From positions 1,778 through 65,777 of the forward strand of contig JAIRUW010000060.1 of NCBI GenBank assembly GCA_031254195.1: DNA of 64,000 bases, read 5' to 3'. Made by a program: the position numbers and the translations under genes. Every line of letters starts with the position of its first letter. Position 1 is the stretch's first letter. The notes beneath the pieces were generated by a model that was not told the origin of the DNA, made no database searches, and was given only the letters and a program-made list of their open reading frames with translations. The stretch is from Oscillospiraceae bacterium (GTDB taxonomy: Bacteria > Bacillota > Clostridia > Oscillospirales > UBA929). Shown here piece after piece: positions 6,948 to 52,709 of this stretch.

Positions 6948-6977
6948 TTGAAAAAGTGCGCTGTTATAGTGTATAAT
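6948..6977 (+). promoter_or_regulatory. candidate strong promoter (TTGAAA-18-TGTATAAT)
   Basis: Extended -10. The next plus-strand CDS starts about 275 nt downstream. Confidence 0.4.
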
Positions 6978-13748: not shown

Positions 13749-13767
13749 CTCAGCCACCTCCGTATAA

Positions 13768-16483: not shown

Positions 16484-16638
16484 GCAGAATTGAACCACAA
16501 AGGGGGAACGCAGAACGATTCGGTCTGTGTCCCTCTAAGCGTTTTTGCGGGCGGTTTCGTTTAAGCGTTCCCTAACCATTCCGTTTTTGAGATATATTTT
16601 CATTTATTTGCGGAAATGTGCCCGGGGAATAATTTTCA

Positions 16639-16667
16639 TTGCCAGAAGGGAGGTTTTGTGGTATACT
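16639..16667 (+). promoter_or_regulatory. candidate soj-spo0J promoter (TTGCCA-17-TATACT)
   Basis: Consensus-like hexamers about 115 nt upstream of soj. Confidence 0.45.
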
Positions 16668-16783
16668 GCAAAGAAGCGGACAGCTTGCGGGGCGGTAAGA
16701 TTCACTTTCAACGCCCGGTTGCGGGTGTTGTGAGACTTAACATGATATAGCGCATACTAAATATAGCGGCAAGGGGCCGGAAG

Positions 16784-23401: not shown

Positions 23402-23402
23402 A

Positions 23403-23429
23403 GCAGGGGCGGCCTTTGGCCGTCCGTGG
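23403..23429. repeat. REP-like hairpin repeat (copy 3)
   Basis: GCAGGGGCGGCCTTTGGCCGTCCGTGG. Confidence 0.8.
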
Positions 23430-35867: not shown

Positions 35868-36040
35868 AGCGAATCCTCCTTTAGGCCATAGCTTCCTATT
35901 CCCGTCTTCCGTCGGTCTATTTATTATATCACCGTTATCCCCATCTGACAAGCACAGCATCCTGTAGTTCCAGCATTGACAGACCACAAGCGGACGCGCA
36001 AAGCGCGCCCTTATAATGTGATAATTTCATATATATGGTT

Positions 36041-36067
36041 GCAGGGGCGGCCTTTGGCCGTCCACAG
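36041..36067. repeat. REP-like hairpin repeat (copy 5)
   Basis: GCAGGGGCGGCCTTTGGCCGTCCACAGG. Confidence 0.8.
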
Positions 36068-36711: not shown

Positions 36712-36715
36712 AAAA

Positions 36716-36740
36716 ATACCCCGTCCGGCGGACGGGGTAT
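36716..36740. terminator. bidirectional terminator between small ORF and rplQ
   Basis: ATACCCCGTCC-GGC-GGACGGGGTAT flanked by an A-run and a T-rich stretch. Confidence 0.65.
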
Positions 36741-36752
36741 CTTGATTCGTTT

Positions 36753-37100
36753 CTAGCCTTCCAAAATCTCCAGCACAGCCATCTCGGCGGCGTCGCCGCG
36801 CCGCGGGCCGATACGGGTGACACGGGTGTACCCGCCGTTGCGCTCCGCGAAGCGGGGAGCGATGTCTTCAAAGAGCTTTTTCACGGTGTCTTCCTTGGTG
36901 ATGAACGACATGGCGCGGCGGCGCGCGGCAATCGTGCCCTCCTTGCCGAGGGTTATCATCTTTTCCACGAGGGCGGCCGTGTCTTTAGCGCGCGTGACGG
37001 TAGTTTCGATGCGTTCCTTCTCTATGGCGGCGGTGACCTGCCCGCGCAGCATTGACATGCGGTGCGCGGTCGGGCGGCTCAATTTTCTTGTTCCGGGCAT
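36753..37100 (-). CDS. rplQ: 50S ribosomal protein L17
   Basis: 115 aa. Follows rpoA, the last gene of the alpha operon. Confidence 0.9.
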   Translation of the reverse strand: MPGTRKLSRPTAHRMSMLRGQVTAAIEKERIETTVTRAKDTAALVEKMITLGKEGTIAARRRAMSFITKEDTVKKLFEDIAPRFAERNGGYTRVTRIGPRRGDAAEMAVLEILEG

Positions 37101-37102
37101 GG

Positions 37103-38047
37103 TTATATATCCTCCCTCAGCGCCAGACCCATCGTCTGGAGCTTGTTGATAACTTCCTCCAGGCTCTTGCGCCCGAGGTTGCGCACCTTCATCATATCGC
37201 TCTCGCTCTTGGCCACCAGGTCTTCGACGATGTTGATGCCGGCGCGTTGGAGGCAGTTGAAGCTGCGGACGGAGAGGTCAAGCTCCTCGATGGTCATCTC
37301 CAGCATCTTGTCCCTTTGGGATTCGGGCTTGACAATAACGGTATTGCTCTTCCCCAGCTCCTCGCTGAGGTCGGTGAAGATCATCAGCAGGTCTGCCAGA
37401 ATCTTCGCGCCCAGTGAAACAGCGTCGCGTGCCGACAGGGTGGAATCGGTCCATACTTCCAGCGTCAGCTTATCGAAGTCGGTCATATTGCCGACACGGG
37501 TATTCTCAACGGAGAAGTTGACCTTCAGCACAGGCGTATAGACGCTGTCCACAGGAATCAGCCCGATAACGGCCTGCGGCGGCTTGTTGCGTTCCGCCGG
37601 CGCATATCCGCGCCCGTGGCTCATGGTCAGCTCCATCTCCAGGCGGCCATCCTCGGCTAAGGTGGCGATGTGCAAGTCGGGGTTGAGGATTTCAACCTCG
37701 CTGTCGGTACGGATGTCGCCGGCTGTAACCTCGCCCTCGCCGCTGGCCTCGATGTAGACTGTTTTTATGCCGGGGGAATATATCTTGGCGATAATGCCCT
37801 TGATATTCAAAATCAGCTCGGTAACGTCTTCTTTCACGCCTGGAATGGTGGAAAACTCATGGTGGACGCCGGCAATCTTGACGGTAGTGACCGCTGTGCC
37901 GGGCAGGGAGGAGAGCAGGATGCGGCGCAGGGAATTGCCCAATGTCGTGCCGTAACCGCGTTCCAAGGGCTCCACAATAAACTTTCCGTAAGAGCTGTCC
38001 TCATCCGTTCCTATACACTCAATGCGCGGCTTCTCTATCTCAATCAT
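37103..38047 (-). CDS. rpoA: DNA-directed RNA polymerase alpha subunit
   Basis: 314 aa. C-terminal [12 protein letters not shown] domain motif. Confidence 0.95.
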
Positions 38048-38095
38048 GTGAGCACTCCTTTATTCAACTTGGTGTATGGGGACTGAAACAGCGCG

Positions 38096-38722
38096 CTACT
38101 TGGAATACAACTCGACGATCAGGTGCTCCTCGATTGGAAGGTCGATGTCCTCCCGGACGGGCAGCGCCACGACCGACGCCTGAGCGTTGTCGCGGTCAAG
38201 CGACAGCCACTGCGGAACGGGGCGGGACGCGTTGTTTTCCATCACCGTCTTGAACCTGTCCAGGCTGCGGCTCTTGTTGGCCAGCGCCACGGTCATACCG
38301 GGCTTGACTAAGAAGGATGGGATATTCACGCGCCTTCCGTCAACGGTGACATGGCCGTGTGTGACGGCTTGCCGGGCCTCGGCGCGGCTCATGGCAAAGC
38401 CAAGGCGGTAAATGACATTGTCAAGGCGGCGTTCCAGCAAGGAAAGCAGGTTGTCGCCGGTTTGGCCGCTCATGCCGGTCGCCATGTTGAAATAGAGTCC
38501 GAACTGGCGCTCTAAAACGCCGTAATGGCGGCGGGCCTTCTGCTTCTCGCGGAGCTGGGTGCCGTATTCGCTGGGCTTTTTGCGGCCTTGCCCGTGCTGT
38601 CCGGGGGCATACATGCGGCGGTCAACGGCGCATTTTTCCGAATAGCACCGGTCGCCCTTGAGAAACATCTTCAACCCCTCACGGCGGCACTGGCGGCACA
38701 CCGCGTCTGTATATCTGGCCAT
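38096..38722 (-). CDS. rpsD: 30S ribosomal protein S4
   Basis: 208 aa. [16 protein letters not shown] start. Confidence 0.95.
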
Positions 38723-38723
38723 A

Positions 38724-39125
38724 TTACACTCTCCTCCTCTTGGGCGGGCGGCAGCCGTTGTGCGGGATGGGCGTTACGTCTTTAATCATCGTTACGTCCA
38801 AGCCGACGGCCTGCAATGCCCGGATGGCGGCCTCGCGCCCCGATCCCGGACCCTTGACATAGACCTCGACTGATTTCAGGCCGTGCTCCATCGCCGCCTT
38901 CGCAGCGGTCTCGGCGGCGGTCTGTGCGGCAAACGGCGTGGACTTGCGGCTTCCGCGGAAGCCCAGTCCGCCCGACGACGCCCATGACAGGGCGTTGCCC
39001 TGCACGTCGGTGATGGTCACCATCGTGTTGTTGAAGGAGGAACGGATATGCACCGCGCCTTTTTCAATATTTTTGCGTTCGCGGCGTTTTCTGGACACGC
39101 CCCGTTTGGCTTTTGGTTGCGGCAT
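38724..39125 (-). CDS. rpsK: 30S ribosomal protein S11
   Basis: Start trimmed to MPQPKAKRG (GGAAAGGA RBS 8 nt upstream). [15 protein letters not shown]. Confidence 0.9.
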
Positions 39126-39143
39126 TGATTTCATCCTTTCCTA

Positions 39144-39212
39144 TGTCACGCTCCATGCGCGGCTTGCGGCTGGGTCAGAAGTGAATTCCTCCCCTGCAAG
39201 CCGATGGAGCAG
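39144..39212 (-). repeat. structured spacer element, type 1 (copy A, rpsM|rpsK)
   Basis: mRNA sense GCUCCAU-CGGCUUGC-[loop]-GCAAGCCG-CGC-AUGGAGCGUGACA. Ends 1 nt before the rpsK SD. Confidence 0.75.
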
Positions 39213-39214
39213 TT

Positions 39215-39583
39215 TTACTTCTTCTTATTGGCAATCGTACGCTTCGGGCCTTTGCGTGTGCGGGCGTTGGTCTTCGACCGCTGGCCGCGTACCGGCAGGC
39301 CCCTGCGGTGGCGCAGACCGCGGTAACTGCCGATCTCGATCAAACGCTTGATGTCCAGCGCAACGTCACGGCGCAGGTCGCCCTCCACTTTGAGGTCTTT
39401 TTCAATGACCTCGCGCAGCTTCGCGACTTCCTCTTCCGTCAGCTTCTTCACGCGCGTGTCAGGGCTGATGCCCGTTTGAGCGAGGATCTTGTTGGATGTG
39501 GTGCGGCCGATCCCGAAGATGTATGTCAGGCCAATCTCCACCCGTTTTTCTTTCGGCAGGTCTACGCCGGCAATACGAGCCAT
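39215..39583 (-). CDS. rpsM: 30S ribosomal protein S13
   Basis: 122 aa. [10 protein letters not shown] start. Confidence 0.95.
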
Positions 39584-39599
39584 GTGTTCTTCCCCCTAA

Positions 39600-39713
39600 T
39601 TAACCTTGACGTTGTTTGTGTTTAGGATTTTCGCAGATAATCATCACGCGCCCGTGGCGCTTGATGATCTTACACTTTTCGCACATCGGCTTGACCGAAG
39701 GACGCACTTTCAT
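39600..39713 (-). CDS. rpmJ: 50S ribosomal protein L36
   Basis: Track ORF trimmed to the 37-aa [37 protein letters not shown]. Confidence 0.9.
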
Positions 39714-39762
39714 GATTACCACCCTTTCGCCGCGCTCCGCTGTAGGAGCCGCTTGGTTTATT

Positions 39763-39981
39763 TTACTTGGATCTCCATGTAATTCTTCCACGAGTTAAGT
39801 CGTACGGCGACATTTGCAAGGTAACTTTATCGCCGGGGAGGATACGGATAAAGTTCATACGCAGTTTCCCTGAAATGTGAGCGTGGATCACATGCCCCCC
39901 GGAAATCTCCACTTTGAACTGCGCGTTGGGCAGCGCTTCCCGAACGACGCCTTCGACTTCGATCATATCGTCTTTTGCCAC
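39763..39981 (-). CDS. infA: translation initiation factor IF-1
   Basis: 72 aa. [13 protein letters not shown]...[10 protein letters not shown]. Confidence 0.95.
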
Positions 39982-40000
39982 GCGAGTTCACCTCCCCATT

Positions 40001-40762
40001 TCATACGGAACCCTCCGTCAATGTCAGCAATTCCGGCTCGCCCGCCATAACCAGCACCGTGTGCTCATAATGGGCGGCCAATGACCCGTCCGCCGTGACC
40101 ACTGTCCAATTATCGCGCAGGACCTCCGTCTTGCCTCTGCCGGCCGCGATCATCGGCTCAATGGCGAGCGTCATGCCGGGCAGCAGCCTCGAACCGCGTT
40201 TCCCGTCGGAAAAGTTAGGCACCTCCGGGTCTTCATGGAGACTGCGCCCCACGCCGTGACCGGTCCAGTCGCGCACGACGTCACAGCCGTTGCTCTGTGC
40301 GTAATCCTGGATAGCCGCCGAGATTTCGGAGACACGCGCCCCTGAAACTGCCCGCGCGGCACCCCTGAAAAAACATTCGCGCGCCACTCCGATCAGCCGC
40401 CGGGCCTTTTCGGAGACAGTGCCCACCGCGAAAGTGGCGGCGGTGTCCCCGTGGAACCCTTCAAAGCACGCGCCTACATCTATGCTGACAATATCGCCCT
40501 CTTGTAAAACCCGCCGCCGTGACGGAATCCCGTGGATGACTTCCTCGTTGACCGACGTGTTGCAGGAGGCGGGGTAGCCCCGGTAGCCTAGAAAACTGGG
40601 GGACGCGCCATGCCTCTGTATCAGTCGCCGTATGGCGTCGTCAATCTGCTTTGTCGTGACGCCCGGCCGGGCCAGCTTTCCGCCCTCTATGAGCGCCAGC
40701 GCCGCGATACGTCCGGCTTTTCGCATGGATTCAATCTCGCGCCCGGACTTGACCAAAATCAT
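40001..40762 (-). CDS. map: type I methionine aminopeptidase
   Basis: 253 aa. Metal ligand contexts DIVSIDVG, HGVG, EPM. Confidence 0.9.
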   Translation of the reverse strand: MILVKSGREIESMRKAGRIAALALIEGGKLARPGVTTKQIDDAIRRLIQRHGASPSFLGYRGYPASCNTSVNEEVIHGIPSRRRVLQEGDIVSIDVGACFEGFHGDTAATFAVGTVSEKARRLIGVARECFFRGAARAVSGARVSEISAAIQDYAQSNGCDVVRDWTGHGVGRSLHEDPEVPNFSDGKRGSRLLPGMTLAIEPMIAAGRGKTEVLRDNWTVVTADGSLAAHYEHTVLVMAGEPELLTLTEGSV

Positions 40763-41394
40763 GCCAAGGCTTCCATGATGCGGCGGTTGATTTCTTCCAA
40801 GCCACCCGTTCCCACAACACAGCGCAAGCGCCCCAGGCGTTCATAAAAGCCCTTCAGCGGCTCCGACTGCTCATGGTAGACGCGCAGCCGCTCCCGCACC
40901 GTTTCAGGGTTATCGTCAGCCCGCTGTATCAGCGAGCCCTTGCACAAATCGCATACGCCTTCCTGTTTAGGCGGGTTGTTTTGCTTGTGGAAGACCGCGT
41001 TGCAGGCGGGGCAGACGCGCCGCCCGGCCATGCGGTTTTCGATGTCGCTGTCGGGAACCTCGATCGAAAGCGCGACCTCCGGGCTGATACCCAGCTCTTC
41101 CAGCAATTCCGCCTGTGGGATGGTGCGCGGGAACCCGTCGAGAATGTAGCCGTTCGCGCAGTCGCTGTCTTCCAGCCGCTGTTTGAGCGCTTCCGCTACG
41201 ATCTCGTCCGGCACCAGCTTGCCTCCGTCCACGTACGCTTTGGCTTTGATGCCGATCTCCGTCTGCTCCCGTATGGCGCTCCGTAAAATGTCGCCTGTAG
41301 AGATGACCGGTACACTGAGATTCTTGCTGACCATGGCGGCCTGCGTTCCCTTACCGGAACCGGGCGCGCCGAGCAAAATCAAAACCAATTTCAT
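40759..41394 (-). CDS. adk: adenylate kinase
   Basis: Start trimmed to MKLVLILLGAPGSGKGTQ. Zinc-lid CPAC...CDLC. Confidence 0.9.
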   Translation of the reverse strand: MKLVLILLGAPGSGKGTQAAMVSKNLSVPVISTGDILRSAIREQTEIGIKAKAYVDGGKLVPDEIVAEALKQRLEDSDCANGYILDGFPRTIPQAELLEELGISPEVALSIEVPDSDIENRMAGRRVCPACNAVFHKQNNPPKQEGVCDLCKGSLIQRADDNPETVRERLRVYHEQSEPLKGFYERLGRLRCVVGTGGLEEINRRIMEALA

Positions 41395-41434
41395 CACCGT
41401 CCGCTCTGTATAACTGTTTAGTGTGAACCGTACT

Positions 41435-42706
41435 TTATTCAAGGAACCCTTTATAGTGCCGCATCATCATCTGGGATTCGATGGCTTTGACCGTCTCCAA
41501 GGCAACGCCGACAACAATCAGCAACGACGTGCCGCCCATGGCCAGCCCGGGGACCGTCAGCACACCGCTCATAATGATCGGCATGACGGCGATCATCCCC
41601 AAGAAGAGGGCGCCAAACAGGGTGATCCGGTTGAGTACCCTGCGGATGAAGTCGCTGGTTGGTTTGCCGGGACGGAACCCCGGTACAAAACCGCCGTTGT
41701 TCTTGAGGTTATTGGCAATTTCAATCGGATTGAACTGGATCGACTGATAAAAATAGCTGAAAGCGATAATCAAAAGCAGATAAAACACAGCGTAAGGCCA
41801 GGAACCGGGTCCGAACCATCTGTCCACCGTGTCGTTCGCACCTTGAGAGACGAACGTAGCGATGGTCGCGGGGAAGGAGACGATGGCGGAGGCAAAGATA
41901 ATCGGCATGACGCCCGACATATTCACTTTCAGCGGCAGATAGGTGCTCTGCCCGCCGTACATCTTGCGTCCGACCATCCGCTTGCTGTATTGGATTGGGA
42001 GACGGCGCTCCGCCTGGGTGATGAAGACGACAAATGTCACGGCAATGACAGCCACCAGAAGGATGCCAGCCAGCTGAATCCAGCCGTTCTGCATCCCGGC
42101 CAGGGCGATGCCGCTTTGCACCATATCCGGCCCGCGCGATACGATAGAGGCGAAGAGGATGATGGAGATGCCGTTGCCTACGCCAAATTCGGTAATCTGC
42201 TCGCCCAGCCACATGATGAAAGCCGAGCCGGCGGTCAGGGTCAGGACGATGACAAAGCCCGCGAATACGGAATCGTCGGTCAGCACCTGATAGTTGCGCA
42301 TCATTACGTATTGTCCGAAGCCCAGCAGGAGACCCAAAAGAACTGTGGCATAACGGGTGATCGCCGCGATTTTCTTACGGCCTTCCTCGCCGCCTTCCTT
42401 CTGAAGCCGCTCCAGCGCCGGGATGCCGACGGTGAGCAGGTTCATGATGATGGAGGCGTTGATATAGGGCTGAATGGAGAGGGAGAAAATAGACGCTTCG
42501 GAGAAGGCGCCGCCGCTCATCATATTGACCAGTCCCAGCGCCGTATTGGCGAGTTGCTCCTCAAACAGCGTGGCAAAAGCCCCGCTGTCTACAAAAGGCG
42601 TGAACACCTGCGCGCCAAAACGGTAGATGGCCAGTATGGCGATCGTGAACAGTATTTTGTTTCGCAGCTCCTTGATCTTCCATGCGTTACGCAGCGTTTC
42701 AATCAT
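41435..42706 (-). CDS. secY: preprotein translocase subunit SecY
   Basis: 423 aa, 10 TM segments. Canonical position after rplO. Confidence 0.95.
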   Translation of the reverse strand: MIETLRNAWKIKELRNKILFTIAILAIYRFGAQVFTPFVDSGAFATLFEEQLANTALGLVNMMSGGAFSEASIFSLSIQPYINASIIMNLLTVGIPALERLQKEGGEEGRKKIAAITRYATVLLGLLLGFGQYVMMRNYQVLTDDSVFAGFVIVLTLTAGSAFIMWLGEQITEFGVGNGISIILFASIVSRGPDMVQSGIALAGMQNGWIQLAGILLVAVIAVTFVVFITQAERRLPIQYSKRMVGRKMYGGQSTYLPLKVNMSGVMPIIFASAIVSFPATIATFVSQGANDTVDRWFGPGSWPYAVFYLLLIIAFSYFYQSIQFNPIEIANNLKNNGGFVPGFRPGKPTSDFIRRVLNRITLFGALFLGMIAVMPIIMSGVLTVPGLAMGGTSLLIVVGVALETVKAIESQMMMRHYKGFLE

Positions 42707-42733
42707 GATGAAAATCCTTTCAAGTCCAGCGGC

Positions 42734-43177
42734 TCAGCGCTTCGTTTCGCACTTGCCTCCGGCGGCCTCGATTTTTTCCTTCGCTGACGCCGAGAAGCTG
42801 TCCGCAACGATGGTCAGCGCCGCCTTGATCTCCCCGTTGCCCAACACCTTAAGCCCGTGAGGACATTTGCGCAGGATACGCTTTTCCAGTAAAAGCTCCG
42901 CCGTGACGGTGGAACCGGCTTCAAAGCCTTCGAGCACACTGAGGTTAATGGCGGTCAGCGGCGTCGCGAAACGGTTGTTGAAACCGCGCTTGGGCAAACG
43001 TATCTTGAGCGGCATCTGACCGCCCTCAAAGCCACGCTTCCTGCTGTAGCCGCTGCGGGATTTCTGGCCTTTATGCCCTCTGCCGGAGGTCTTGCCATTG
43101 CCCGACGCCGGACCGCGGCCTACGCGGAACCCTTCGCGCCGCGCGCCCTCCGCCGGGGCCAACTCATGCAGTTTCAT
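42734..43177 (-). CDS. rplO: 50S ribosomal protein L15
   Basis: 147 aa. [14 protein letters not shown]..GRGxxSGNGKTSGRG. Confidence 0.95.
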   Translation of the reverse strand: MKLHELAPAEGARREGFRVGRGPASGNGKTSGRGHKGQKSRSGYSRKRGFEGGQMPLKIRLPKRGFNNRFATPLTAINLSVLEGFEAGSTVTAELLLEKRILRKCPHGLKVLGNGEIKAALTIVADSFSASAKEKIEAAGGKCETKR

Positions 43178-43353
43178 TTCGTCTCCCCCTGTATCTTCAC
43201 AAGGTAGCGGATTTGGTTCAGCTTGCCGCGCGTCGCCTCGTTGTCGGGCTGCTCCGTAGTATTGCCTATGCGCCGCAAGCCGAGACTGTGGGCAGTGGCG
43301 ATGTGTTTGTCATGGCGGCCGTTGAGGCTTTTGATCAATGTAATTTTAACCAT
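43174..43353 (-). CDS. rpmD: 50S ribosomal protein L30
   Basis: Track ORF trimmed to [10 protein letters not shown] (59 aa). Confidence 0.85.
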
Positions 43354-43870
43354 GGCGGGCCTCCAGAATACTCTCCGGCGATTTTCCGCGCACCCGCGCC
43401 ACATCCGCGACGCTCTTCAAGGACATCAGCCCCTGCATCGTTGCGGTGACGACGTTTTGCGGATTGTTGGAGCGCAAGCACTTGGTGCGCACATCGCGAA
43501 TGCCCGCGGCTTCCATGACCGCGCGCACCGGACCGCCCGCGATAACTCCGGTACCGGGCGCGGCGGGCTTAAGCAGTACGCGCCCCGCGCCGAACGCACC
43601 GATGACCTCGTGCGGGATGGTCGTACCTTTAAGGTTGATTTTGACAAGGTTTTTCTTCGCGTCCTCGATACCCTTGCGGATGGCGTCGGGCACCTCGCCC
43701 GCTTTACCAAGCCCAAAGCCCACCGTACCGTTGCCGTCGCCCACGACGACCAGCGCGGCGAACTTAAAGATACGCCCGCCTTTCACGGTCTTAGAGACAC
43801 GGTTGAGGGAAATGACTTTTTCCTTCATATCGGACGCGCCCGCGTCGAATTTGTTTTGTTGATACGGCAT
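43346..43870 (-). CDS. rpsE: 30S ribosomal protein S5
   Basis: 174 aa. [24 protein letters not shown]. Confidence 0.95.
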
Positions 43871-43888
43871 ATTTTGTCATTCCCTCCC

Positions 43889-44251
43889 TTAAAATTCTAA
43901 TCCGGCTTCTCTCGCGCCTTCGGCCAGCTCCTGCACGCGCCCGTGGTAGAGATAGCCGCCGCGGTCGAAGACCACGCTTTTGATGCCCTTTTTGACGGCT
44001 CGCGCGGCGACCAGCTTGCCCACCTCGCGGGCTCCTTCCTTGTTGCTGCCGCTCTTGCCCTTGAACTCCTTGTCCAGCGACGAGGCAGAGCAGAGCGTCG
44101 TGCCTGTCCCGTCGTCGATGACCTGCGCGTAGATGTGGTTTAAGCTGCGGTATACGTTGAGGCGCGGACGGGACGCCGTCCCCTCGATCTTCCCGCGTAC
44201 GCGCCTGTGCCTTCTCTGGCGCTGTGCCTCGGTATCAGGCCGTTTGACCAT
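43889..44251 (-). CDS. rplR: 50S ribosomal protein L18
   Basis: 120 aa. [23 protein letters not shown]. Confidence 0.95.
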
Positions 44252-44266
44252 TTGTCCCCGCCCCCT

Positions 44267-44812
44267 TTACTTCTTCTTGCCGCCGGTCTTGCCTTCCTTG
44301 CGGCGAATGACCTCTCCGGCGTATTTGATGCCCTTGCCCTTATACGGCTCCGGCGGGCGCTTCTCGCGTATCTCGGCGGCCAGCTGGCCGACCCGCTGCT
44401 TGTCGCTGCCCGAAACGGTAATCTTGTTTCCTTCCACGGCGATGGCCAAGCCCTCGGGCGGATCAATGAACACTTGATGCGAGTATCCTACGTTGAGGAC
44501 CAGCTGTTTGCCCTGCATAGCGGCGCGGTAACCGACGCCGTTGACCTCCAGCTGTTTTGTAAAGCCCGCCGTGACGCCCACGACCATATTGTCGAGCAGT
44601 GTACGCCCCAGGCCGTGCTGGCTGCGGTGCTCCTTGCTGTCGGTAGAGCGCTTGGCATTGATGAAACCGCCGTCCCGCTCAAACGCAATCATCGGCGGGA
44701 GCTGCTGCGCGAGCGTCCCTTTCGGGCCTTTGACGGTGGCGAAGTTGGACTCACTGAGATTGACCTCTACGCCTGCCGGCACAGGGATGGGTTTCCTTCC
44801 GATTCGTGACAT
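44267..44812 (-). CDS. rplF: 50S ribosomal protein L6
   Basis: 181 aa. [15 protein letters not shown]. Confidence 0.95.
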
Positions 44813-44827
44813 GTTACTCCCCTCCCC

Positions 44828-45226
44828 TTACCATACGAACGCCAGGACTTCCCCGCCGACATGCGCCGCGCGCGCCTTCTTGTCGGTCATAAGCCCTTTT
44901 GAGGTCGAAATGATGGCGATGCCAAGGCCACGCAGCACCTGCGGCAGCTCTTCCGCGCCCGCGTAAATGCGCAGGCCGGGTTTGGAGACGCGGCGCAGGC
45001 CGGTGATGGCCTTCTCTTTGGTCGGCAGGTATTTCAGTGTGATGCGGATGACGCCCTGCCCTTTGTCGTCGATGTGCTGGACATTCTTGATATACCCTTC
45101 CTCAAGAAGGATGCCGGCAATCGACTTCTTTAGGTTGGAAGCCGGGATGTCCACGGTTTCGTGCCGGGCCGCGTTGGCGTTTCGGATGCGCGTCAGCAGA
45201 TCGGCTACGGGGTCGGTGATTTGCAT
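44828..45226 (-). CDS. rpsH: 30S ribosomal protein S8
   Basis: 132 aa. [13 protein letters not shown]. Confidence 0.95.
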
Positions 45227-45275
45227 AGTGCTACCTCCTGTTATGTTGAGGTGTCAGGAGGGACGGTTTTTGAGT

Positions 45276-45360
45276 GTTACGCTCCATGCGCGCCTCGCGG
45301 GCGGTCTTGTAAGCGGGAAGCGAGTTCCCCCTTACACTCCCTGCTCGGCGATGGAGCAGC
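45276..45360 (-). repeat. structured spacer element, type 1 (copy B, rpsN|rpsH)
   Basis: GCUCCAU-CGCC...GGCG-CGC-AUGGAGCGUAACA with a longer internal hairpin. The spacer is 159 nt. Confidence 0.7.
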
Positions 45361-45385
45361 TCATCTCAAACCTTTCTCCCCTGTT

Positions 45386-45571
45386 TTACCAAGAAGCCTT
45401 CCTGACTCCGGGAATCTGCCCTTTATAGGCGATCTCACGGAAACAGATGCGGCAGATGCCGTAATTGCGCAGATAGGCGTGCGGACGCCCGCAAATCTTG
45501 CAGCGGTTGTAGGCCCTTGTTGAATACTTGGGCGTTTTCTGCTGCTTGAGTACCAATGCTTTCTTAGCCAT
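45386..45571 (-). CDS. rpsN: 30S ribosomal protein S14 type Z (zinc form)
   Basis: 61 aa. CKICGRP...CRICFRE. Confidence 0.95.
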
Positions 45572-45588
45572 GTTCGGGCAATCCTCCT

Positions 45589-46134
45589 TTAAGCCGTTCT
45601 CGCGAACGGGGCGCCTAACAGTGTCAGCAGTTCCAGCGCTTCCTCGTCGGTGTTGGCGGTGGTGCAGATGACGATGTCCATCCCCCTGATCTTATCAATC
45701 TTGTCGTAGACGATTTCGGGGAAGATTAGCTGCTCCCTCAGACCCAGCGCGTAGTTGCCGCGTCCGTCAAAGGCCGAGGGGTTGATGCCGCGGAAGTCAC
45801 GGACACGGGGGAGCGCCACGTTGAGCAAGCGGTCGATGAACTCCCACATGCGCGCCCCGCGCAACGTCACTTTGACGCCGACCGGCATCCCAGTGCGTAC
45901 TTTGAAGTTCGCCACCGATTTGCGGGCGCGTGTGACGACGGCCTTCTGGCCGGTGATTTGGGATATATCGCCTACCACGGCGTCCAGAATTTTGGAGTTG
46001 TCGCGCGCGTCGCCGCAGCCGACATTGATGACAATCTTGTCAAGCCGGGGTATCTGCATCACGCTTTTATATGAAAACTTTTTCATCAAAGCGGGCGCGA
46101 TCTCTTTTTGATAGCGTTCTTTCAATCGCGGCAT
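45589..46134 (-). CDS. rplE: 50S ribosomal protein L5
   Basis: Track ORF 45589-46353 trimmed to [11 protein letters not shown] (AGGAGG 9 nt upstream). The extension would read through element C. Confidence 0.9.
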
Positions 46135-46148
46135 GTTCATCTGCCTCC

Positions 46149-46219
46149 TGTTGCGCTCCACACGCGTCTCACGGTCAGGAGCGGAAGTGAATTCCACCTT
46201 CTGTGAGCCGATAGAGCTG
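46149..46219 (-). repeat. structured spacer element, type 1 (copy C, rplX|rplE)
   Basis: GCUCUAU-CGGCUCAC-[..GGAAUUCACUUCC..CUGACC]-GUGAGACG-CGU-GUGGAGCGCAACA. Abuts the rplE SD. Confidence 0.75.
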
Positions 46220-46223
46220 TTCG

Positions 46224-46547
46224 TTAGATCGTATCTCCGCATTTTTTGCAAACGCGGCTCTTTGTGCCGTCCTCGGCGACATAAAAGGCGCCCCTGGTCG
46301 GCTTCTGGCACTTGGGGCATACGCGCATCACTTTGGGCGCGTAGATGGGGCACTCTTTTTCGACGATGCCGCCCGGGTCGTTTCGCTTGCGGGGCTTTGT
46401 ATGCCTCTTGGACACGTTGATGCCCTCGATCAGCACCTTGTTTTCCTTCGGGTAGGTGTGGAGGACCTTGCCCTTTCTGCCCTTGTCCTTGCCGGACAGG
46501 ACGATGACGATATCGTCTTTACGGACGGATAAGCTGTTCATGGTCAA
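46224..46547 (-). CDS. rplX: 50S ribosomal protein L24
   Basis: 107 aa. [23 protein letters not shown] KOW start plus a Cys-containing C-terminal extension. Confidence 0.9.
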
Positions 46548-46912
46548 ATTACCTCCGGGGCAAGGGATAGAATCTTCATATAGTCCTTGTCGCGCAATTC
46601 GCGGGCGACCGGGCCGAAGATGCGCGTCCCGCGCGGATTCTTGTCCTCTTTGATCAGCACGGCGGCGTTGTCGTCGAAGCGGACGTAAGAACCGTCAGGC
46701 CTGCGGATGGCGTGGGCGGTGCGTACGATGACCGCTTTGATCACGTCGCCCTTCCTCACGGCGCTGGCCGGGGCCGCCTTGCGGACGGAAGCGACGATGA
46801 CATCGCCCACACCGCCGTATTTACGGCCGGAACCGCCTAAAACGCGGATAACCTTAATTTCCTTGGCGCCGGTATTGTCGGCCACCGTCAGATATGATTC
46901 CTGTTGAACCAT
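46544..46912 (-). CDS. rplN: 50S ribosomal protein L14
   Basis: 122 aa. [18 protein letters not shown]. Confidence 0.95.
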
Positions 46913-46918
46913 GAGAAA

Positions 46919-47338
46919 TCACTTCGCTTTCTCGATGATCTCGACCAATCTCCAGCGTTTTTCCTTGGAGAGCGGGCGGGTTTCCATGACCCTGACCTTG
47001 TCGCCGACGCCGCATTCGTTGTTTTGGTCGTGCGCCTTGAGCTTATAGGTGCGTTTGATGGTCTTCTTGTAAAGCGGGTGGCGTTTGTGCGCTTCAATGG
47101 CCACCACGATTGTCTTGTCCATCTTGTCGCTCACGACCACGCCGATGCGCGTCTTGCGGAAGTTGCGGCCGTCTTCGGCAGCGGGAGCGGAGCTTTCTTC
47201 TGTAATGTTTTCAACGGGGGCAGAAGCCTCTTTCGCGACGCTCTCTTGGGGAGCGGCTATTTCCTCGGCAACATCCCCAGCGGGGGCGACGGCGTCCCCG
47301 GAGACAGGCTCTTCTTGGATTTTTTTCTCTTCGCTCAT
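46919..47338 (-). CDS. rpsQ: 30S ribosomal protein S17 with about 55-aa acidic N-terminal extension
   Basis: 139 aa. The S17 core starts near [23 protein letters not shown] coupling to the rpmC stop supports the long start. Confidence 0.8.
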
Positions 47339-47541
47339 CGTCCGGCCGCCTCCTTAAGCTCGTTTTCACGGATAAGCGTCTTGACCCGCGCTATATCCCT
47401 TTTGACATCGCTGATTCTGATGGGGTTGTCGAGTTGGTTGGTGGCGTGCTGCATACGCAGATTGAAAAGGTCTTTTTTTAAGTCGTGCAGCTTGGTATCC
47501 AGCTCCCCGGGGCTGAGGTCGCGCAGTTCATTGATCTTCAT
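47335..47541 (-). CDS. rpmC: 50S ribosomal protein L29
   Basis: Track ORF trimmed to [14 protein letters not shown] (68 aa). Confidence 0.9.
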
Positions 47542-47978
47542 TCCGCCTCGCCTCCCGTCCCGGTTTGCTCCCGCGTCACAAACCTGCATTTGATTGGCAG
47601 TTTGTGCATCGCAAGGCGCAGCGCTTCGCGCGCTAAGGCCTCGTCTACACCGGCAACTTCAAACAACACACGCCCCGGTTTGACCACGGCTACCCAATAC
47701 TCGGGCGAGCCTTTACCCGAACCCATGCGGGTTTCGGCCGGCTTTGACGTTACGGGCTTGTGCGGGAAAATCTTAATCCAAACCTTTCCGCCCCTCTTCA
47801 TATGGCGGGTCATGGCGATACGGGCCGCTTCTATCTGGTTGCTGGTGATCCAGCCCGGCTCGTCTGCCATCAGGCCAAACTCGCCGTTGCTGACGAAATT
47901 GCCCCTTTGCGCTTTGCCTTTCATGCGCCCGCGCTGTACGCGGCGGAACTTTACTCTCTTGGGTAACAGCATACTCAA
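47538..47978 (-). CDS. rplP: 50S ribosomal protein L16
   Basis: 146 aa. [19 protein letters not shown]. Confidence 0.95.
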
Positions 47979-48850
47979 ACGCCTCCTTCACGGCGGGGAG
48001 GGCCTCCGGGACGCTGCCCCTGTCCTCCTGGCCTCGGACCTCCGGGCCCGCCGCCCGGCCTTGGGCCGCCAAAGCCTCCGCCCGGTCTGCCGCCCGGCCT
48101 CCCGGGTCCGCCGGGGCGCCCTCCGTCGCGGCGGTCGCCTCTGTCGCGCCTGTCGCGGCGGTCACGCCTGTCGTCACGGATGCGGGGGGTCTCGATGGTA
48201 CGCGGCCCCATGCGGTTGCCCGCGGTGAGAACCTCGCCCTTATAAATCCATACTTTCACGCCAATGCGCCCGTAGGTGGTGTGCGCTTCGGCAAAACCGT
48301 AGTCAATGTCGGCGCGCAGGGTTTGCAGGGGAATGGTGCCCTCATGGTAATGCTCGTTGCGCGCGATTTCCGCGCCGCCCAAACGACCCGATACAGCCGT
48401 TTTGATGCCTCTCGCCCCAGCCCGCATCGAACGCATCATGGCCTGCTTCATCGCGCGGCGGAAGCTGATCCGCTTCTCCAGTTGCTGCGCGATATTTTCG
48501 GCGACAAGCTGGGCGTTGAGGTCGGGCTGTTTGACTTCGACGATGTTCAGCGCCACCGGCTTTTTCACCATCTTCTCGATCTCGGCCCGCAACTTTTCTA
48601 TGTCTTGCCCGCCGCGTCCGATGACCATGCCGGGCTTGGCGCAGTGCAGGAAAACGCGGACGCGGGCGCTGTCGCGCTCAATTTCGATGCGCGGCACCCC
48701 GGCGTTATGGAGCTTTTTCTTCAAAAACTCGCGAACGCGGTAATCCTCCACGATCAAGTCGCCGACCTTGTCCGGCCTCGCATACCAGCGGGAGTCCCAG
48801 CCCTTGATGACGCCTACGCGCAGCCCGTGCGGATTGACTTTCTGTCCCAT
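47975..48850 (-). CDS. rpsC: 30S ribosomal protein S3 with about 70-aa Arg/Gly/Pro-rich C-terminal tail
   Basis: 291 aa. [13 protein letters not shown] start. Tail [29 protein letters not shown]... Confidence 0.9.
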
Positions 48851-48864
48851 AGGTCGCCGCCTCC

Positions 48865-49218
48865 TTAGCTTTCTTCCCCGCTGCGCTCGGCAACGGTGAC
48901 GGTGATGTGGCTGGTGCGCTTGAGGATACGGTAGCCGCGGCCTTTGGCGCGGGCGTGCATCCGCTTGAGAGTCGGCCCGGGGCCGATCAGCACTTGGGAA
49001 ACATACAGCCCGTCGCGGTCGAGGTCATACTTGCTCTCGGCGTTGGCGCAGGCGCTGTCCAAGACCTTAATCAGCAGCTCCGACGCCGCCTTGGGGGTAT
49101 GCAGAAGGATGGCGCGGGCTTTTTTGACGTCCTTGCCCCGAATCAGCTCGCCCACGATCGAAACCTTGCGCGGCGAGATGCGGGCATATTTGTGGTGCGC
49201 TGTCGCTTGCATAGTCAA
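48865..49218 (-). CDS. rplV: 50S ribosomal protein L22
   Basis: 117 aa. [18 protein letters not shown]. Confidence 0.9.
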
Positions 49219-49227
49219 CTACCTCCG

Positions 49228-49300
49228 TGTCAAGCCTCGCAACGCCCGCCGGGCGGTGTCGGAAGTGAAATCCGTCACCTGGCGGCCTGCTCGGTTCTTC
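49228..49300 (-). repeat. structured spacer element, type 2 (copy D, rpsS|rplV)
   Basis: GAAGAACCGAGC..GCCGCC..AGGUGACGGAUUUCACUUCCGACACCGCCCGGCGGGCGUUGCGAGGCUUGACA. Ends 1 nt before the rplV SD. Confidence 0.75.
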
Positions 49301-49302
49301 AT

Positions 49303-49578
49303 TTATCTCCCGCTCGTCTTGCTTCCGGCATGGCCCCGGAAGGTGCGCGTCGGGGCAAATTCGCCCAGCTTATGCCCGACCATGTCTTCGGTGATATAGA
49401 CGGGTACGTGCTTGCGCCCGTCATGGACGGCGAAGGTGTGCCCCACAAAATCGGGGAAGACGGTGGAGGCGCGGCTCCATGTCTTCAGAACCTTCTTCTC
49501 GTTCTTCTTGTTCAGCTCATCCACGCGTTTCAAGAGCTCGGGGGCCGCGAACGGGCCTTTTTTAACGCTTCTGCTCAT
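49303..49578 (-). CDS. rpsS: 30S ribosomal protein S19
   Basis: 91 aa. [10 protein letters not shown]. Confidence 0.95.
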
Positions 49579-49597
49579 TGTTGGAAATCACCCTCCA

Positions 49598-49664
49598 TGT
49601 CAAGCTCCGCTGCATCCACGGACGGTCGGATACTGTATCCTCCCTGCGGATGCGCTCCGCTCTT
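49598..49664 (-). repeat. structured spacer element, type 2 (copy E, rplB|rpsS)
   Basis: GAAGAGCGGAGC-GCAUCCGC-[AGGGAGGAUACAGUAUCC..]-GUGGAUGC-AGCGGAGCUUGACA. Ends 1 nt before the rpsS SD. Confidence 0.7.
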
Positions 49665-50498
49665 CTATTTCACGTTTCTGCGCTTGACGATCAATTTATC
49701 GGTGCGGTGCTTCTTCTTGCGGGTCTTGTATCCCAGCGTCGGCTTGCCCCACGGCGTGACCGGTCCTGGGCGCCCAATCGGGCTTTTGCCCTCGCCGCCG
49801 CCGTGCGGGTGATCGCAGGGGTTCATGACAGAGCCGCGTACCGTGGGCCGGACGCCCATATGGCGCTTACGCCCCGCCTTGCCGATTTGGATGTTCTCAT
49901 GGTCGAGGTTGCCGATCTGGCCGATGGTGGCCTTGCAGTCCTGGCGCACAATGCGCACCTCGCCTGAGGGGAGCCTGATTTGCGCCGTCACACCCTCTTT
50001 GGCCATCAGCTGAGCCGACGCCCCGGCGCTGCGCGCCATCTGAGCCCCGCGCCCGGGGTAAAGTTCAATGTTGTGGATGACGGTGCCCAGCGGGATGTTC
50101 GCGATCGGCAGGCAGTTGCCCGGACGGATGTCCGCGCCTGTGCCCGATACAACGGTGTCGCCGTCTTTGAGGCCGGCCGGGGCGATGATGTAGCGCTTCT
50201 CGCCGTCTTCATACTGCACCAAAGCGATATTGGCGCTGCGGTTGGGGTCGTATTCTATGCCGATTACCTTGGCGGGCATATCAATTTTATCGCGCTTAAA
50301 GTCGATCTTGCGGTATTTGCGCTTCTCGCCGCCGCCGTGGTGGCGGACGGTGATGCGGCCGCTGTTGTTGCGGCCCGCCGTCTTTTTGATCGGCTCCAGC
50401 AGGGATTTTTCCGGTGTCTTCTTGGTGATTTCGGAAAAATCGCTGACGGTCATGTGCCGCCTGGACGGCGTGGTGGGGCGGTACTGTTTGATTCCCAT
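49665..50498 (-). CDS. rplB: 50S ribosomal protein L2
   Basis: 277 aa. [14 protein letters not shown]...HPHGGGEG. Confidence 0.95.
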
Positions 50499-50501
50499 AG
50501 C

Positions 50502-50795
50502 TTACACCATCCCCTCAAAGAACTCGATAGGCTTGCTCGTTTCGGCCAGACGGACGATGGCCTTCTTGCGGGCCGCGCGGCGCCCGATATGCACGCCCAT
50601 CCGTTTGACTTTGCCCTGTGTGTTCATCGTGTTGACAGATTTCACGTCGACGTTGAAAATCGCTTCCACGGCTTCGCGGATCTCAATTTTGTTGGCGTCG
50701 CGCGCCACTTCAAAAGTGTAAATCTTTTCGCCCGCTTTTTCCATCGAACGCTCGGTGATGACCGGGCGCAAAATGATGTCATAAGGTGCCTTCAT
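50502..50795 (-). CDS. rplW: 50S ribosomal protein L23
   Basis: 97 aa. Canonical position between rplD and rplB. Confidence 0.9.
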
Positions 50796-51418
50796 CTCGC
50801 GAACACCTCCTCGATCGTTCCCAGCGCGGCTTTATCGATAATCAGCGTTCCGGCGCTGACAATGTCGTAAACGCTCATCACGCTGGCAAACGTCGTCTTG
50901 ACGCCCTGAAGATTGCGGGCCGACTTGACGATGTTTTCGCGTACGTCCTTGGTAACGACATAGCTCTTGCCCTCCACGCCCAGCGCGGCCAAAAAGCCCA
51001 CGAACGCTTTGGTCTTAATCTCAGGCATGTCTAGGCCGTCGATAATCAGCACTTTGTTGTCGGCCGCCTTCTGAGACAGCGCGCTGCGCATCGCCAGACG
51101 GCGAATCTTTTTGTTGACGCTCATCGTATAATCGCGCGGCTTGGGGGCAAACGCTACGCCGCCGTGCGTCCATTGCGGGGCGCGGGTGCTGCCCTGACGG
51201 GCGCGGCCGGTTCCCTTCTGGCGGTACGGCTTGGCGCCGCCGCCCGAAACCTCGGCGCGGGTGAGCGCGGACTGTGTGCCCTGGCGGCAGGCGGCAAGAT
51301 GCGCCTTGACCACCGAATGGACGGAAGCCGCCGACGGCGCGATCCCAAAGACCGCTTCCGAAAGCTCCACTTCGCCCGTTTCGTTGCCGGACATATCATA
51401 TACCTTAGCTTTTGGCAT
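50792..51418 (-). CDS. rplD: 50S ribosomal protein L4
   Basis: 208 aa. [15 protein letters not shown]. Confidence 0.95.
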
Positions 51419-51433
51419 GTCGGTCGCCTCCTA

Positions 51434-52063
51434 TTACGCGTTTTTGACAGAATTTCTGATATAGACCAAACCTCCGCGGGGACCGGGGACCGCGCCCCTG
51501 ACCGCTATGATGCCTAACTCCGCGTCGGTTTTGACGACATCGAGGTTGAGTACGGTGACCTGCTCGCTGCCCATATGCCCTGCCATCTTCTTTCCTGGGA
51601 AAACACGGCTGGGATCGGAGCCCGAACCTGTGGAGCCTAAGTGGCGGTGAACGGGGCCGCCGCCGTGGGACATCGCCTTGCGGCCATATCCATGGCGTTT
51701 GATGACGCCCGCGTAGCCCTTGCCCTTGGAGACTCCGGTGACGTCCACGCGGTCGCCCGCTTCAAACGCGGCGGCTTCAATGACGTCGCCCGTCTTATAC
51801 TCGCCTTCCAGATCAAACTCCTTGAGATACTTTTTCAGCGGCACGCCGGCCTTCTCAAAGTGCCCGCGCTCGCTCTTGGTCAGCTTGCGTTCGGCAACAT
51901 CCTCAAACCCGAGCTGGACCGCCGTGTACCCGTCGCGCTCCGGCGTCCTGATCTGTGTGACCGTACACGGCCCCGCCTGTATGATGGTGACGGGGATGAC
52001 GCGCCCGGCTTCGTCGAATATTTGCGTCATGCCGACCTTCTTGCCGATGATGGCCTTTTGCAT
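51434..52063 (-). CDS. rplC: 50S ribosomal protein L3
   Basis: 209 aa. GKKVGMTQIFDE...GKGYAGVIKRHG. Confidence 0.95.
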   Translation of the reverse strand: MQKAIIGKKVGMTQIFDEAGRVIPVTIIQAGPCTVTQIRTPERDGYTAVQLGFEDVAERKLTKSERGHFEKAGVPLKKYLKEFDLEGEYKTGDVIEAAAFEAGDRVDVTGVSKGKGYAGVIKRHGYGRKAMSHGGGPVHRHLGSTGSGSDPSRVFPGKKMAGHMGSEQVTVLNLDVVKTDAELGIIAVRGAVPGPRGGLVYIRNSVKNA

Positions 52064-52121
52064 ATTATCGCCTCCTAATTATTGGTTGGCCAGTGGCCAA
52101 CATGATTTGGAGCTTTTTGCT

Positions 52122-52457
52122 TTACAGCTTGATCTCTATTTCAACGCCCGCGGGCAAATCGAGACTCATCAGCGCTTCCACCGTCTTTTGGCTGGGCTTG
52201 ATGATGTCGATTAGCCGCTTGTGCGTCCGGCGCTCAAACTGTTCGCGGCTGTCCTTATATTTATGGACGGCGCGCAGGATGGTGATAATCTCCTTGTGCG
52301 TGGGGAGGGGGATGGGGCCGGATACGCGCGCCCCGTTGCGTTTGGCCGTCTCGACGATGCGCTCCGCGCTCTGGTCGATCAGCTGATGGTCATAGGCCTT
52401 GAGGCGGATGCGGATTTTTTCCTTTACTCTTGGGGCTTGCGCCGCAGTGGCTGCCAT
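52122..52457 (-). CDS. rpsJ: 30S ribosomal protein S10
   Basis: Track ORF 52122-52709 trimmed to [23 protein letters not shown] behind a TAAGGAGGA RBS. Confidence 0.9.
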
Positions 52458-52552
52458 AATAGGTTTCCTCCTTATCGCCCAGCATACGCTCGGCGTAGTA
52501 GGCACCGGGATAAAGTTCTGTATTCCCCGCCGTGTGTGTCGCGGAAATCCCG

Positions 52553-52575
52553 CGAAAAAAGCCGCGCTGCGGCTT
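52553..52575 (-). terminator. intrinsic terminator-like hairpin inside the S10 operon leader (candidate attenuator)
   Basis: mRNA AGCCGC-AGC-GCGGCU followed by UUUUUU, about 95 nt upstream of the rpsJ AUG. Confidence 0.5.
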
Positions 52576-52680
52576 TGGCGGCAAAACAGCCATTCCCCGA
52601 ACCGCCCGATTGTCGGACATACTCCGCCGAAGTTACCAGCAACGCTGCAATCTCCGGCATCATCGCAAAGACGCTTGAGT

Positions 52681-52709
52681 AGTTTATCGCATGGGTTTTC
52701 ATTTGTCAA
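52681..52709 (-). promoter_or_regulatory. S10 operon promoter (TTGACA-17-TAAACT)
   Basis: Consensus -35. Gives a leader of about 215 nt. Confidence 0.5.

Follow-up and report, generated by a model that had tools for sequence, protein, structure and literature searches.

A probable dispersed hairpin repeat in the intercistronic spacers of the S10-spc-alpha operon of an Oscillospiraceae bacterium

Introduction

Repetitive extragenic palindromes (REPs) and bacterial interspersed mosaic elements (BIMEs) are short imperfect palindromes that are dispersed in intergenic DNA, including that of operons, are co-transcribed with their host genes, and keep their structure by compensatory change. REPs near stop codons can stabilize upstream mRNA or interfere with translation termination. 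[quoted passage not shown] Ribosomal protein (r-protein) operons are highly compact and conserved bacterial transcription units that depend on translational coupling. Here, we analyze a family of hairpin elements in a stretch of 64,000 nucleotides (the window) from an Oscillospiraceae bacterium (GenBank assembly GCA_031254195.1, contig JAIRUW010000060.1, positions 1,778 to 65,777), five copies of which lie in spacers of the S10-spc-alpha r-protein operon. We think it probable that the family is a non-coding, lineage-restricted hairpin repeat, akin to REPs, MITEs, and the palindrome-associated transposable elements (PATEs) of IS200/IS605, and that it has recently colonized five junctions between a stop codon and a Shine-Dalgarno (SD) sequence in this operon.

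Five recent insertions of stable hairpins would mean that the compact architecture of an r-protein operon can be invaded and still work. The same operon, with and without the elements in sister lineages, would also be a natural experiment bearing on translational coupling, mRNA decay, and r-protein stoichiometry.

Copies of the element in the window

The S10-spc-alpha cluster, rpsJ to rplQ, lies on the minus strand of the window, where tblastn with the r-proteins of a relative (L081) placed it from S10 at 52457 through S13 at 39215. Five of its spacers are long (rplB-rpsS, 86 nt; rpsS-rplV, about 90 nt; rplX-rplE, about 89 nt; rpsN-rpsH, 159 nt; and rpsM-rpsK, 80 to 89 nt), and the remaining ones measure at most about 58 nt. 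A model's earlier reading of the letters without database searches (the sequence-only reading) had reported one structured element in each long spacer, on the minus, mRNA-sense strand, and the sequences read off the window agree with it in number, position, and strand. Three of these elements are of type 1: copy A (39144-39212) sits in the rpsM-rpsK spacer between the TAA stop codon and the ancestral SD, copy B (45276-45360), which has a longer apical stem, lies in the rpsN-rpsH spacer, and copy C (46149-46219), with G-U pairs in its basal helix P1, lies in the rplX-rplE spacer. The other two are of type 2: copy D (49228-49300) in the rpsS-rplV spacer and copy E (49598-49665) in the rplB-rpsS spacer, where it starts at the TAG stop codon.

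We searched with two covariance models (CMs), R1, built from 7 copies and run without filters, and R2, built from 15 copies. The five operon copies score 52 to 86 bits (A, 60 to 65; B, 59 to 63; C, 55 to 64; D, 84 to 86; E, 52 to 57), with E-values of 1e-12 to 1e-22. Altogether, R1 finds eight full copies in the window, and R2 recovers the same eight at 52 to 84 bits. Copy F (29599-29686, minus strand; 79 bits), a type-2 element with a long apical stem, opens the leader of a CheW-receiver (CheV-like) gene and begins 1 to 2 nt 3' of TTGTCA-17-TATAAT (29716-29688, extended TG), the best promoter-like site of that region. Copy G (1995-2069, minus strand; 77 to 79 bits), also of type 2, occupies the spacer between darA (yaaQ) and holB, 1 nt past the TAA stop codon. 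Copy H (16673-16742, plus strand; R1, 27 bits; R2, 56 bits) is a divergent type-2 element at the start of the parA/soj leader, 4 to 5 nt 3' of TTGCCA-17-TATACT (16639-16667); parA and parB likewise lie on the plus strand. A repeat search, too, tied the operon copies to 1995-2075, 29599-29692, and 13814-13839, the last being a partial copy that we describe below. The sequence-only reading had framed the elements as a family of the r-protein operon, and that framing fails because three further full copies lie elsewhere in the window and others stand beside unrelated genes in other genomes.

Empty sites in related genomes

We compared the S10-spc operon with those of relatives whose S19 proteins are 91 to 98% identical. 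The corresponding spacers in these relatives measure 13 to 16 nt (rplB-rpsS), 5 to 13 nt (rpsS-rplV; 64 nt in the genome L082), 13 to 15 nt (rplX-rplE), 14 nt (rpsM-rpsK), and 13 to 71 nt (rpsN-rpsH), and the spacers of their S10-spc operons gave no match to the covariance models. Among relatives with 96 to 98% identity in S19, the spacers are 5 to 16 nt long and again free of model matches; in the closest relatives, rpsN-rpsH is the longer exception at 44 to 71 nt. Short, element-free spacers in relatives are what the sequence-only reading had named as a finding that would speak against it, and the relatives show them for all five sites.

Alignment of the flanks resolves the individual sites. 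At site A, L081 reads TAA, AGGAGGGAACAAAA, and atg, whereas the window reads TAA-AACT, copy A, and then T-AGGAAAGG. At site B, the 71-nt rpsN-rpsH spacer of L081 is itself an empty site with the same flanks, GGTTTGRG and AAAAACC, and at site C the relatives read TAG, TAGGAGGCAAAACCT, and atg. The SD sequences downstream of copies A, C, and E are pre-existing flank. At site D, in the rpsS-rplV spacer, the ancestral SD lies inside rpsS, and the window has a new GGAGG/SD 3' of the element (CGGAGGTAG...). Between copy D and the start codon of rplV stand 15 nt (49213-49227, minus strand; CGGAGGTAGTTGACT) that look like the ancestral junction GGGAGGTAAATGATT over again; this duplicate-like junction supplies the new SD, in a single case with no comparable duplication at the other sites.

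Outside the operon, the parA leaders of L095 and L096, whose ParA proteins are 87 to 90% identical, have the same promoter without copy H. The ParA encoded in the window matches MDR0326113.1 exactly. Taken together, the flank alignments and empty sites point to insertions between a stop codon and a pre-existing SD that are specific to the window's lineage. As judged from these comparisons, all six testable copies (the five in the operon and copy H) are specific to that lineage.

Fold, covariation, and strand specificity

The copies, 67 to 130 nt long across the family, have a common rod-like fold made up of P1, an internal loop, P2, a 1x4 loop (A opposite RYCC), P3 (GG/CC), P4, and usually a 5-nt loop. 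In type 1, P1 is a perfect GCUCCAU/AUGGAGC helix with a 3-nt bulge on its 3' side, and copy C has GCUCUAU/GUGGAGC with two G-U pairs, as had been quoted in the sequence-only reading. The inner-helix variants quoted there, CGGCUUGC/GCAAGCCG versus CGGCUCAC/GUGAGACG, are both present as written, and so are the type-2 ends, GAAGARCSGAGC...GCGRGCUUGACA. P1 of type 2 consists of AAG/CUU plus CC/GG around a purine loop. P2 comprises 7 to 8 bp of variable sequence, while the asymmetric loop that sets A opposite RYCC is followed by a GG/CC step that is invariant. The apical stem varies in length and usually ends in AAUUCAYUU, and a single-stranded tail, GAGC(G/U)UGACA, closes the element on its 3' side. 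In four of the five operon copies this tail stops 0 to 1 nt before the downstream SD, which is also as first described. The UUCAC loop, which had been ascribed to every copy, and a tandem G-A block proved to be common rather than universal, as copies B, E, and G differ. In two copies from other genomes (L091 and L093), the tandem G-A block is replaced by Watson-Crick pairs.

Folded singly, the five operon copies reach -24 to -44 kcal/mol, with z-scores that lie at about -3.3 to -3.7 in A, B, and E and are weaker in C and D. The covariation that the sequence-only reading had proposed to check is there among 15 distinct copies: 89.1% of cells pair, versus 32 to 41% with slid partners, both sides have changed in 14 of 21 pairs, and 0 of 500 shuffles reached the observed values, all in an alignment that had been fitted to the model. 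The helices hold 25 G-U or U-G combinations versus 7 A-C or C-A. The sense strand folds more strongly than its complement by a mean of 4.9 kcal/mol, and it does so in 14 of 16 copies (Wilcoxon p=4e-4). A strand-specific fold fits either an RNA or one particular strand of DNA.

Copies in other genomes

Further copies lie beside unrelated genes in at least three related Oscillospiraceae populations known from metagenome-assembled genomes (MAGs) or metagenomes. A degenerate type-2 pattern, run on one genome per GTDB species, hit 77 loci, three of which the CM confirmed, all in the MAG WRIZ01 ("Oscillospiraceae bacterium Nt197P3bin64"); the other 74, which the CM did not confirm, were rejected as chance matches. 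The Nt197P3 bins derive from a termite-gut metagenome (PMC9386147). A stricter pattern run on JGI metagenomes gave six loci, namely the same three in WRIZ01 and three on short Ga0123356 contigs, and no copies were found in viral contigs. The lineage of the family is that of Oscillospiraceae related to termite-gut MAGs.

The WRIZ01 and Ga0123356 copies occur in a spacer that separates the gene for a membrane protein from that for an ABC ATPase, in a leader behind TATAAT, and after a terminator; further contexts are upstream of a RelE/ParE-like gene and upstream of a small open reading frame (ORF) with an intrinsic terminator in between. At the RelE/ParE-like toxin gene (L090, 630-724, minus strand), the terminal TTGACA of the element, a gap of exactly 17 nt, and TATACT make up a consensus-like promoter, so the element may have donated a -35 box there. 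At the small ORF (L092, 1333-1427, plus strand; the same as L039), a strong intrinsic terminator (AAAAAGCCCUCGCUCACGAAAGCGGGGGCUUUUU) stands downstream, followed by an SD and the ATG. This layout is attenuator-like, and the 5' arm of the terminator is almost the complement of P1's 3' strand (GGGAGGCUU).

A sister lineage, represented by L082 and L095 from sample 3300042610, carries copies of its own. In L082, a 141-nt type-1 copy (6802-6942, minus strand) lies antisense upstream of the S10 leader, and its 64-nt rpsS-rplV spacer keeps E-like ends (AAAGAGCGGGG...GCGGAGCCCGACA) without the core, which makes it a decayed or deleted remnant. In L095, a type-1-like copy of 100 nt (16492-16594, minus strand) stands directly past the darA TAA, where the window has the type-2 copy G. 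Its P1, GCUCCGC/GCGGAGC, is a double compensatory change relative to GCUCCAU/AUGGAGC, and a divergent copy (31 bits with R2) lies between holB and ricT of the same genome. The remnant, the divergent copy, and the subtype differences suggest that copies arise, diverge, and decay, and that the same spacers have been struck repeatedly.

The long type-1 variants of L082 and L095 have an extra apical module in common (AGGUCUAGCGARCC...GAGCGUAACCGGAG), which has no Rfam match; the module of L082 contains a nested hairpin.

Insertion features and orientation

There is no sign of a target-site duplication (TSD): 25-nt flanks of the same copy score a mean of 4.68, versus 4.54 for flanks of different copies (Mann-Whitney p=0.18). 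In the small sample of 11 type-2 copies, TAA or TAG adjoins the 5' end in 9, and TAA lies no more than 6 nt upstream of GAAGA in 7, against an intergenic background of about 5%. The preference extends beyond stop codons, as TAA lies within the same distance in four of the five copies that are not behind one. Since the genome is about 57% G+C, TAA and TAG are mostly stop codons and -10 boxes, which would explain both favored positions of the element.

Orientation is equally biased, with 15 of 16 copies co-oriented with the neighboring genes. The antisense strands of E and F score as terminator-like, so selection against termination within operons can explain this bias. Replication strand may also play a part: GC skew in the window follows gene orientation, and it shows no clear origin or terminus.

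Known RNA families and other identities

The sequence-only reading had recognized no named RNA family, and Rfam 15 concurs, matching no copy at its gathering thresholds. Permissive searches gave nothing on the copies either, at E<=10 across 38.5 to 50.5 kb, at E<=1 across the whole window, or at E<=1 on the L082 and L095 loci that hold the long variants.

Several other identities were considered and set aside. The elements are not intrinsic terminators, as the sense strand ends in (C/G)UUGACA or GUGACA without a U-tract and no sense-strand terminator was called at any copy; the antisense strands of E and F, and only these, scored as terminator-like, with a hairpin followed by TCTTCTATT. Within the operon, no copy scores as a sense-strand promoter or terminator. 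A kink-turn (L7Ae/YbxF site) was rejected because the tandem G-A loops of A, E, and L089, as read from their sequences, have no adjacent 3-nt bulge. A pseudoknot between the UUCAC loop and GUGA in the tail was dropped as inconsistent, by eye, across the aligned copies, as the attC and kink-turn comparisons were. We also dismissed a mini-ORF: in D and E, AUU or AUA after the SD-like block is in frame to UGA, there is no canonical start, and the other copies differ.

Comparison with described mobile repeats

The family behaves like REPs, MITEs, and PATEs, yet it fails the defining features of each class, having no GTAG or short palindrome, no TSD, and one hairpin. Its likeness to REPs and BIMEs has several sides: it too is a dispersed, imperfect, intergenic palindrome, found within operons, presumably co-transcribed there, and kept in structure by compensatory change. 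However, REPs are about 20 to 40 nt long, begin with 5' GTAG, and often form inverted pairs (REPINs/BIMEs), while the elements here are 67 to 130 nt long, always single and oriented, and start with AGAAGA or GCUCCAU. They also keep internal loops, an apical loop, and single-stranded tails (AGAAGA...UUGACA), unlike REPs, and a Pfam scan of 20 window ORFs turned up no REP-associated tyrosine transposase (RAYT).

Like the PATEs of IS200/IS605, the family has no TSD and, apart from the hairpin itself, no terminal inverted repeats, and it shares with them a strand-specific fold and a fixed orientation. Insertion also appears to occur directly 3' of a short AT-rich target, TAA or TAG (in a sample of 11 copies only), and the presence/absence patterns would fit seamless insertion. 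In contrast, the ends of IS200/IS605 elements are two different subterminal hairpins with defined cleavage tetranucleotides, where we see one long hairpin, and the scanned ORFs include no Y1 transposase or TnpB.

The resemblance to MITEs lies in small size, apparent non-autonomy, intergenic position, and presumed transcription as a long hairpin. Classical MITEs, though, have terminal inverted repeats that match an insertion sequence (IS) and a fixed TSD; here a TSD was not found, the arms are inverted repeats solely through the whole-element hairpin, and the scanned ORFs of the window include no IS. A review bears on such repeats (PMC10969869). Another report describes stable intercistronic stem-loops in operons for multi-subunit complexes of Clostridium cellulolyticum and proposes that they set the stability of transcript segments (PMC4423207). 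Those stem-loops are gene specific rather than one repeated family, and the elements here are known from sequence alone.

Integron attC sites offer a further parallel, as they lie behind stop codons, are conserved more in structure than in sequence, have bulges on one strand and a variable apex, and use a single active strand. The elements differ from them in having no complementary R''/R' cores, in the absence of an integrase from the scanned ORFs, and in their hosts, which are essential core genes and not cassettes. Their 5' end reads AGAAGAGCC and their 3' end GGCUUGACA, so that AAG/CUU is the only pairing and the GACA tail stays unpaired.

Origin and possible roles of the repeat

Among the roles offered by the sequence-only reading (RNA processing or stability element, translational insulator, or small mobile palindromic element tolerated in an essential operon), the last is the one that comparative data back, and to that extent its interpretation stands. 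We infer mobility solely from patterns of presence and absence. The element would move as a folded single strand and land directly 3' of TAA or TAG, which would explain its position right behind stop codons and -10 boxes. The strand-specific fold, the missing TSD, the TAA/TAG adjacency, and the seamless-looking empty sites suggest that it might be mobilized in the manner of HUH hairpins, of either the IS200/IS605 or the RAYT type. Only sense-oriented copies would survive in operons, where a hairpin followed by UUGACA should not terminate transcription, while an antisense copy would present a hairpin followed by UCUUCUAUUU. After insertion, the element would be co-transcribed with its host genes. 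It probably disrupts translational coupling there and serves as a barrier to exonucleases or a guide for an RNase, so that mRNA stability would differ from segment to segment. By analogy with REPs and with the clostridial intergenic stem-loops (PMC4423207), such effects are plausible; RNase Y, for one, might be guided by structure that lies 3' of an A-rich single-stranded tract.

Several observations weigh against a dispersed repeat of this kind. The strict pattern scans found few copies elsewhere, which argues against a high-copy family outside the lineage, and the 20 scanned ORFs of the window include no transposase, RAYT, or integrase. Across species and subtypes, conservation extends to the apical AAUUCACUU loop and to nucleotides that do not pair, which exceeds what a neutral palindrome needs. 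In addition, five of the eight window copies lie in the r-protein operon, whose ancestral spacers amount to only about 9% of the intergenic DNA of the window (a rough binomial test gives p of about 2e-4), and both the rpsS-rplV and darA-holB spacers hold different subtypes in different lineages. This enrichment and repeated occupation would require either a strong target preference or selection for function, and with the conserved loops and junctions they keep a functional RNA or a strongly targeted insertion in contention. That TAA/TAG adjoins the element, that its fold is strand-specific, and that the same spacers were occupied repeatedly together point toward a targeted mechanism of insertion, and to our knowledge no such mechanism has been described for bacteria of the class Clostridia.

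The alternative that survives best, which we consider unlikely, is that the element is a functional cis-acting RNA, a module of "operon punctuation" that selection keeps because of its recruitment of an RNase or an RNA-binding protein. A candidate is RNase Y, which could cut just upstream of the stem, in the single-stranded UAAAGAAGA; the hairpin would then protect the new 5' or 3' ends, setting the relative stability and translation of mRNA segments (selective RNA processing and stabilization); spread by duplication would be compatible with this. The sense orientation of 15 of the 16 copies and their strand-specific folding agree with such a role, as do the conserved loop and junction nucleotides, the three leader copies that start a few nucleotides from a predicted transcription start, the excess of copies in the r-protein operon, and the fact that different lineages have filled the same spacers repeatedly. 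Stoichiometry in the cip-cel operon of C. cellulolyticum is likewise reported to be controlled by intergenic stem-loops (PMC4423207). However, the closest relatives lack the element in all orthologous operon spacers and in the parA leader, one copy survives as a deleted remnant and another has diverged strongly, and the host genes are unrelated (r-proteins, holB, parA, the cheV-like gene, an ABC transporter, and a RelE-like toxin). The orientation bias, moreover, needs nothing beyond selection against antisense termination.

Mobility and function could also be combined, and it is conceivable, if rather doubtful, that we are seeing a small mobile hairpin of an undescribed kind. Such an element would target TAA/TAG-purine junctions in DNA that is highly transcribed, namely stop codon/SD junctions and -10 boxes, and would integrate there seamlessly and in one fixed orientation. 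The host would have co-opted it as modular operon punctuation that sets processing sites and protective 5' and 3' ends in polycistronic mRNAs, that of the S10-spc-alpha operon included.

A new multi-copy class of self-cleaving ribozyme or ligand-sensing riboswitch seems improbable to us. Conserved unpaired nucleotides flanked by covarying helices, tolerance of length-variable apical insertions, and the element-terminator-SD-ATG layout of L092 would all suit such a class, but a downstream terminator is present at one copy only, and Rfam gives no ribozyme or riboswitch match even at permissive E-values. The basal helix region differs wholly between types 1 and 2, and several copies in one essential operon, plus unrelated host genes, misfit a single ligand.

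We give still less credence to a site that acts at the DNA level, either an attC-like recombination site or a portable promoter with a TTGACA -35 box. The bulged, imperfect hairpin with its variable apex, right behind stop codons and in gene orientation, does recall attC, but complementary RYYYAAC/GTTRRRY cores are missing from the ends, where AAG/CUU alone pairs, and no integrase lies nearby among the scanned ORFs. The perfect TTGACA at the end of type 2, with the TTGACA-17 nt-TATACT arrangement before the RelE-like gene in L090, would suit a portable promoter; that idea was rejected, as none of the operon copies has a predicted promoter on its sense strand and, except in L090, the -35 box has no usable -10 box downstream.

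In the spc operon of Escherichia coli, S8 acts at the rplE position. That the elements are autoregulatory sites, rRNA mimics for S8, L5, S19, and other r-proteins placed before the regulated cistrons, is nevertheless scarcely credible and is contradicted by their distribution: five copies precede r-protein cistrons (copy C precedes rplE) and have the purine-rich internal loops typical of protein sites, but the same element precedes holB, parA, the cheV-like gene, and others, the same spacers in close relatives (5 to 16 nt) lack it, and a single sequence family cannot mimic several different rRNA sites.

Other features of the window

The transcription unit that hosts the five operon copies spans 36713-52709 on the minus strand, from a promoter-like site (52709-52681) to a terminator-like hairpin 3' of rplQ (36743-36713). 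Its S10-Clostridia leader (52671-52610, minus strand) is the only match in the window at an Rfam gathering threshold. Within the operon, the N terminus of S17 (46919-47338, minus strand) carries an acidic extension of about 55 aa; the called product is 197 aa in L081 (12166-12759), and more distant relatives have the usual 86 aa. In L078, a gap of 485 nt (11341-11827) separates rpmC from rpsQ.

The partial copy (13814-13839, minus strand; 16 bits) repeats 22 nt from the 3' end of copy A exactly (GCCGCGCATGGAGCGTGACAT). It sits, after GGGUGGUACCGCG, inside a weak T-box-like leader (13796-14076, minus strand) whose 29 bits fall short of the gathering score, 93, and which lies upstream of a gene for an AMP-binding enzyme (12117-13826).

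The window also holds a second, unrelated repeat family, (T)TGTAGGGGCGGCCTTTGGCCGTCC, in which GTAG is followed by a short GC-rich palindrome, as in the classical REP layout. Five copies occur in the 64 kb, at 6139-6163, 6738-6762, 23401-23425, 28576-28600, and 36039-36063. At 5563-7097 (minus strand), two adjacent paralogous ORFs of 173 and 288 aa, without a Pfam match, sit in direct repeats of 145 to 184 nt that are 74 to 93% identical (families D1, D3, D7, and D12), and each of the two is trailed by one copy of the GTAG palindrome.

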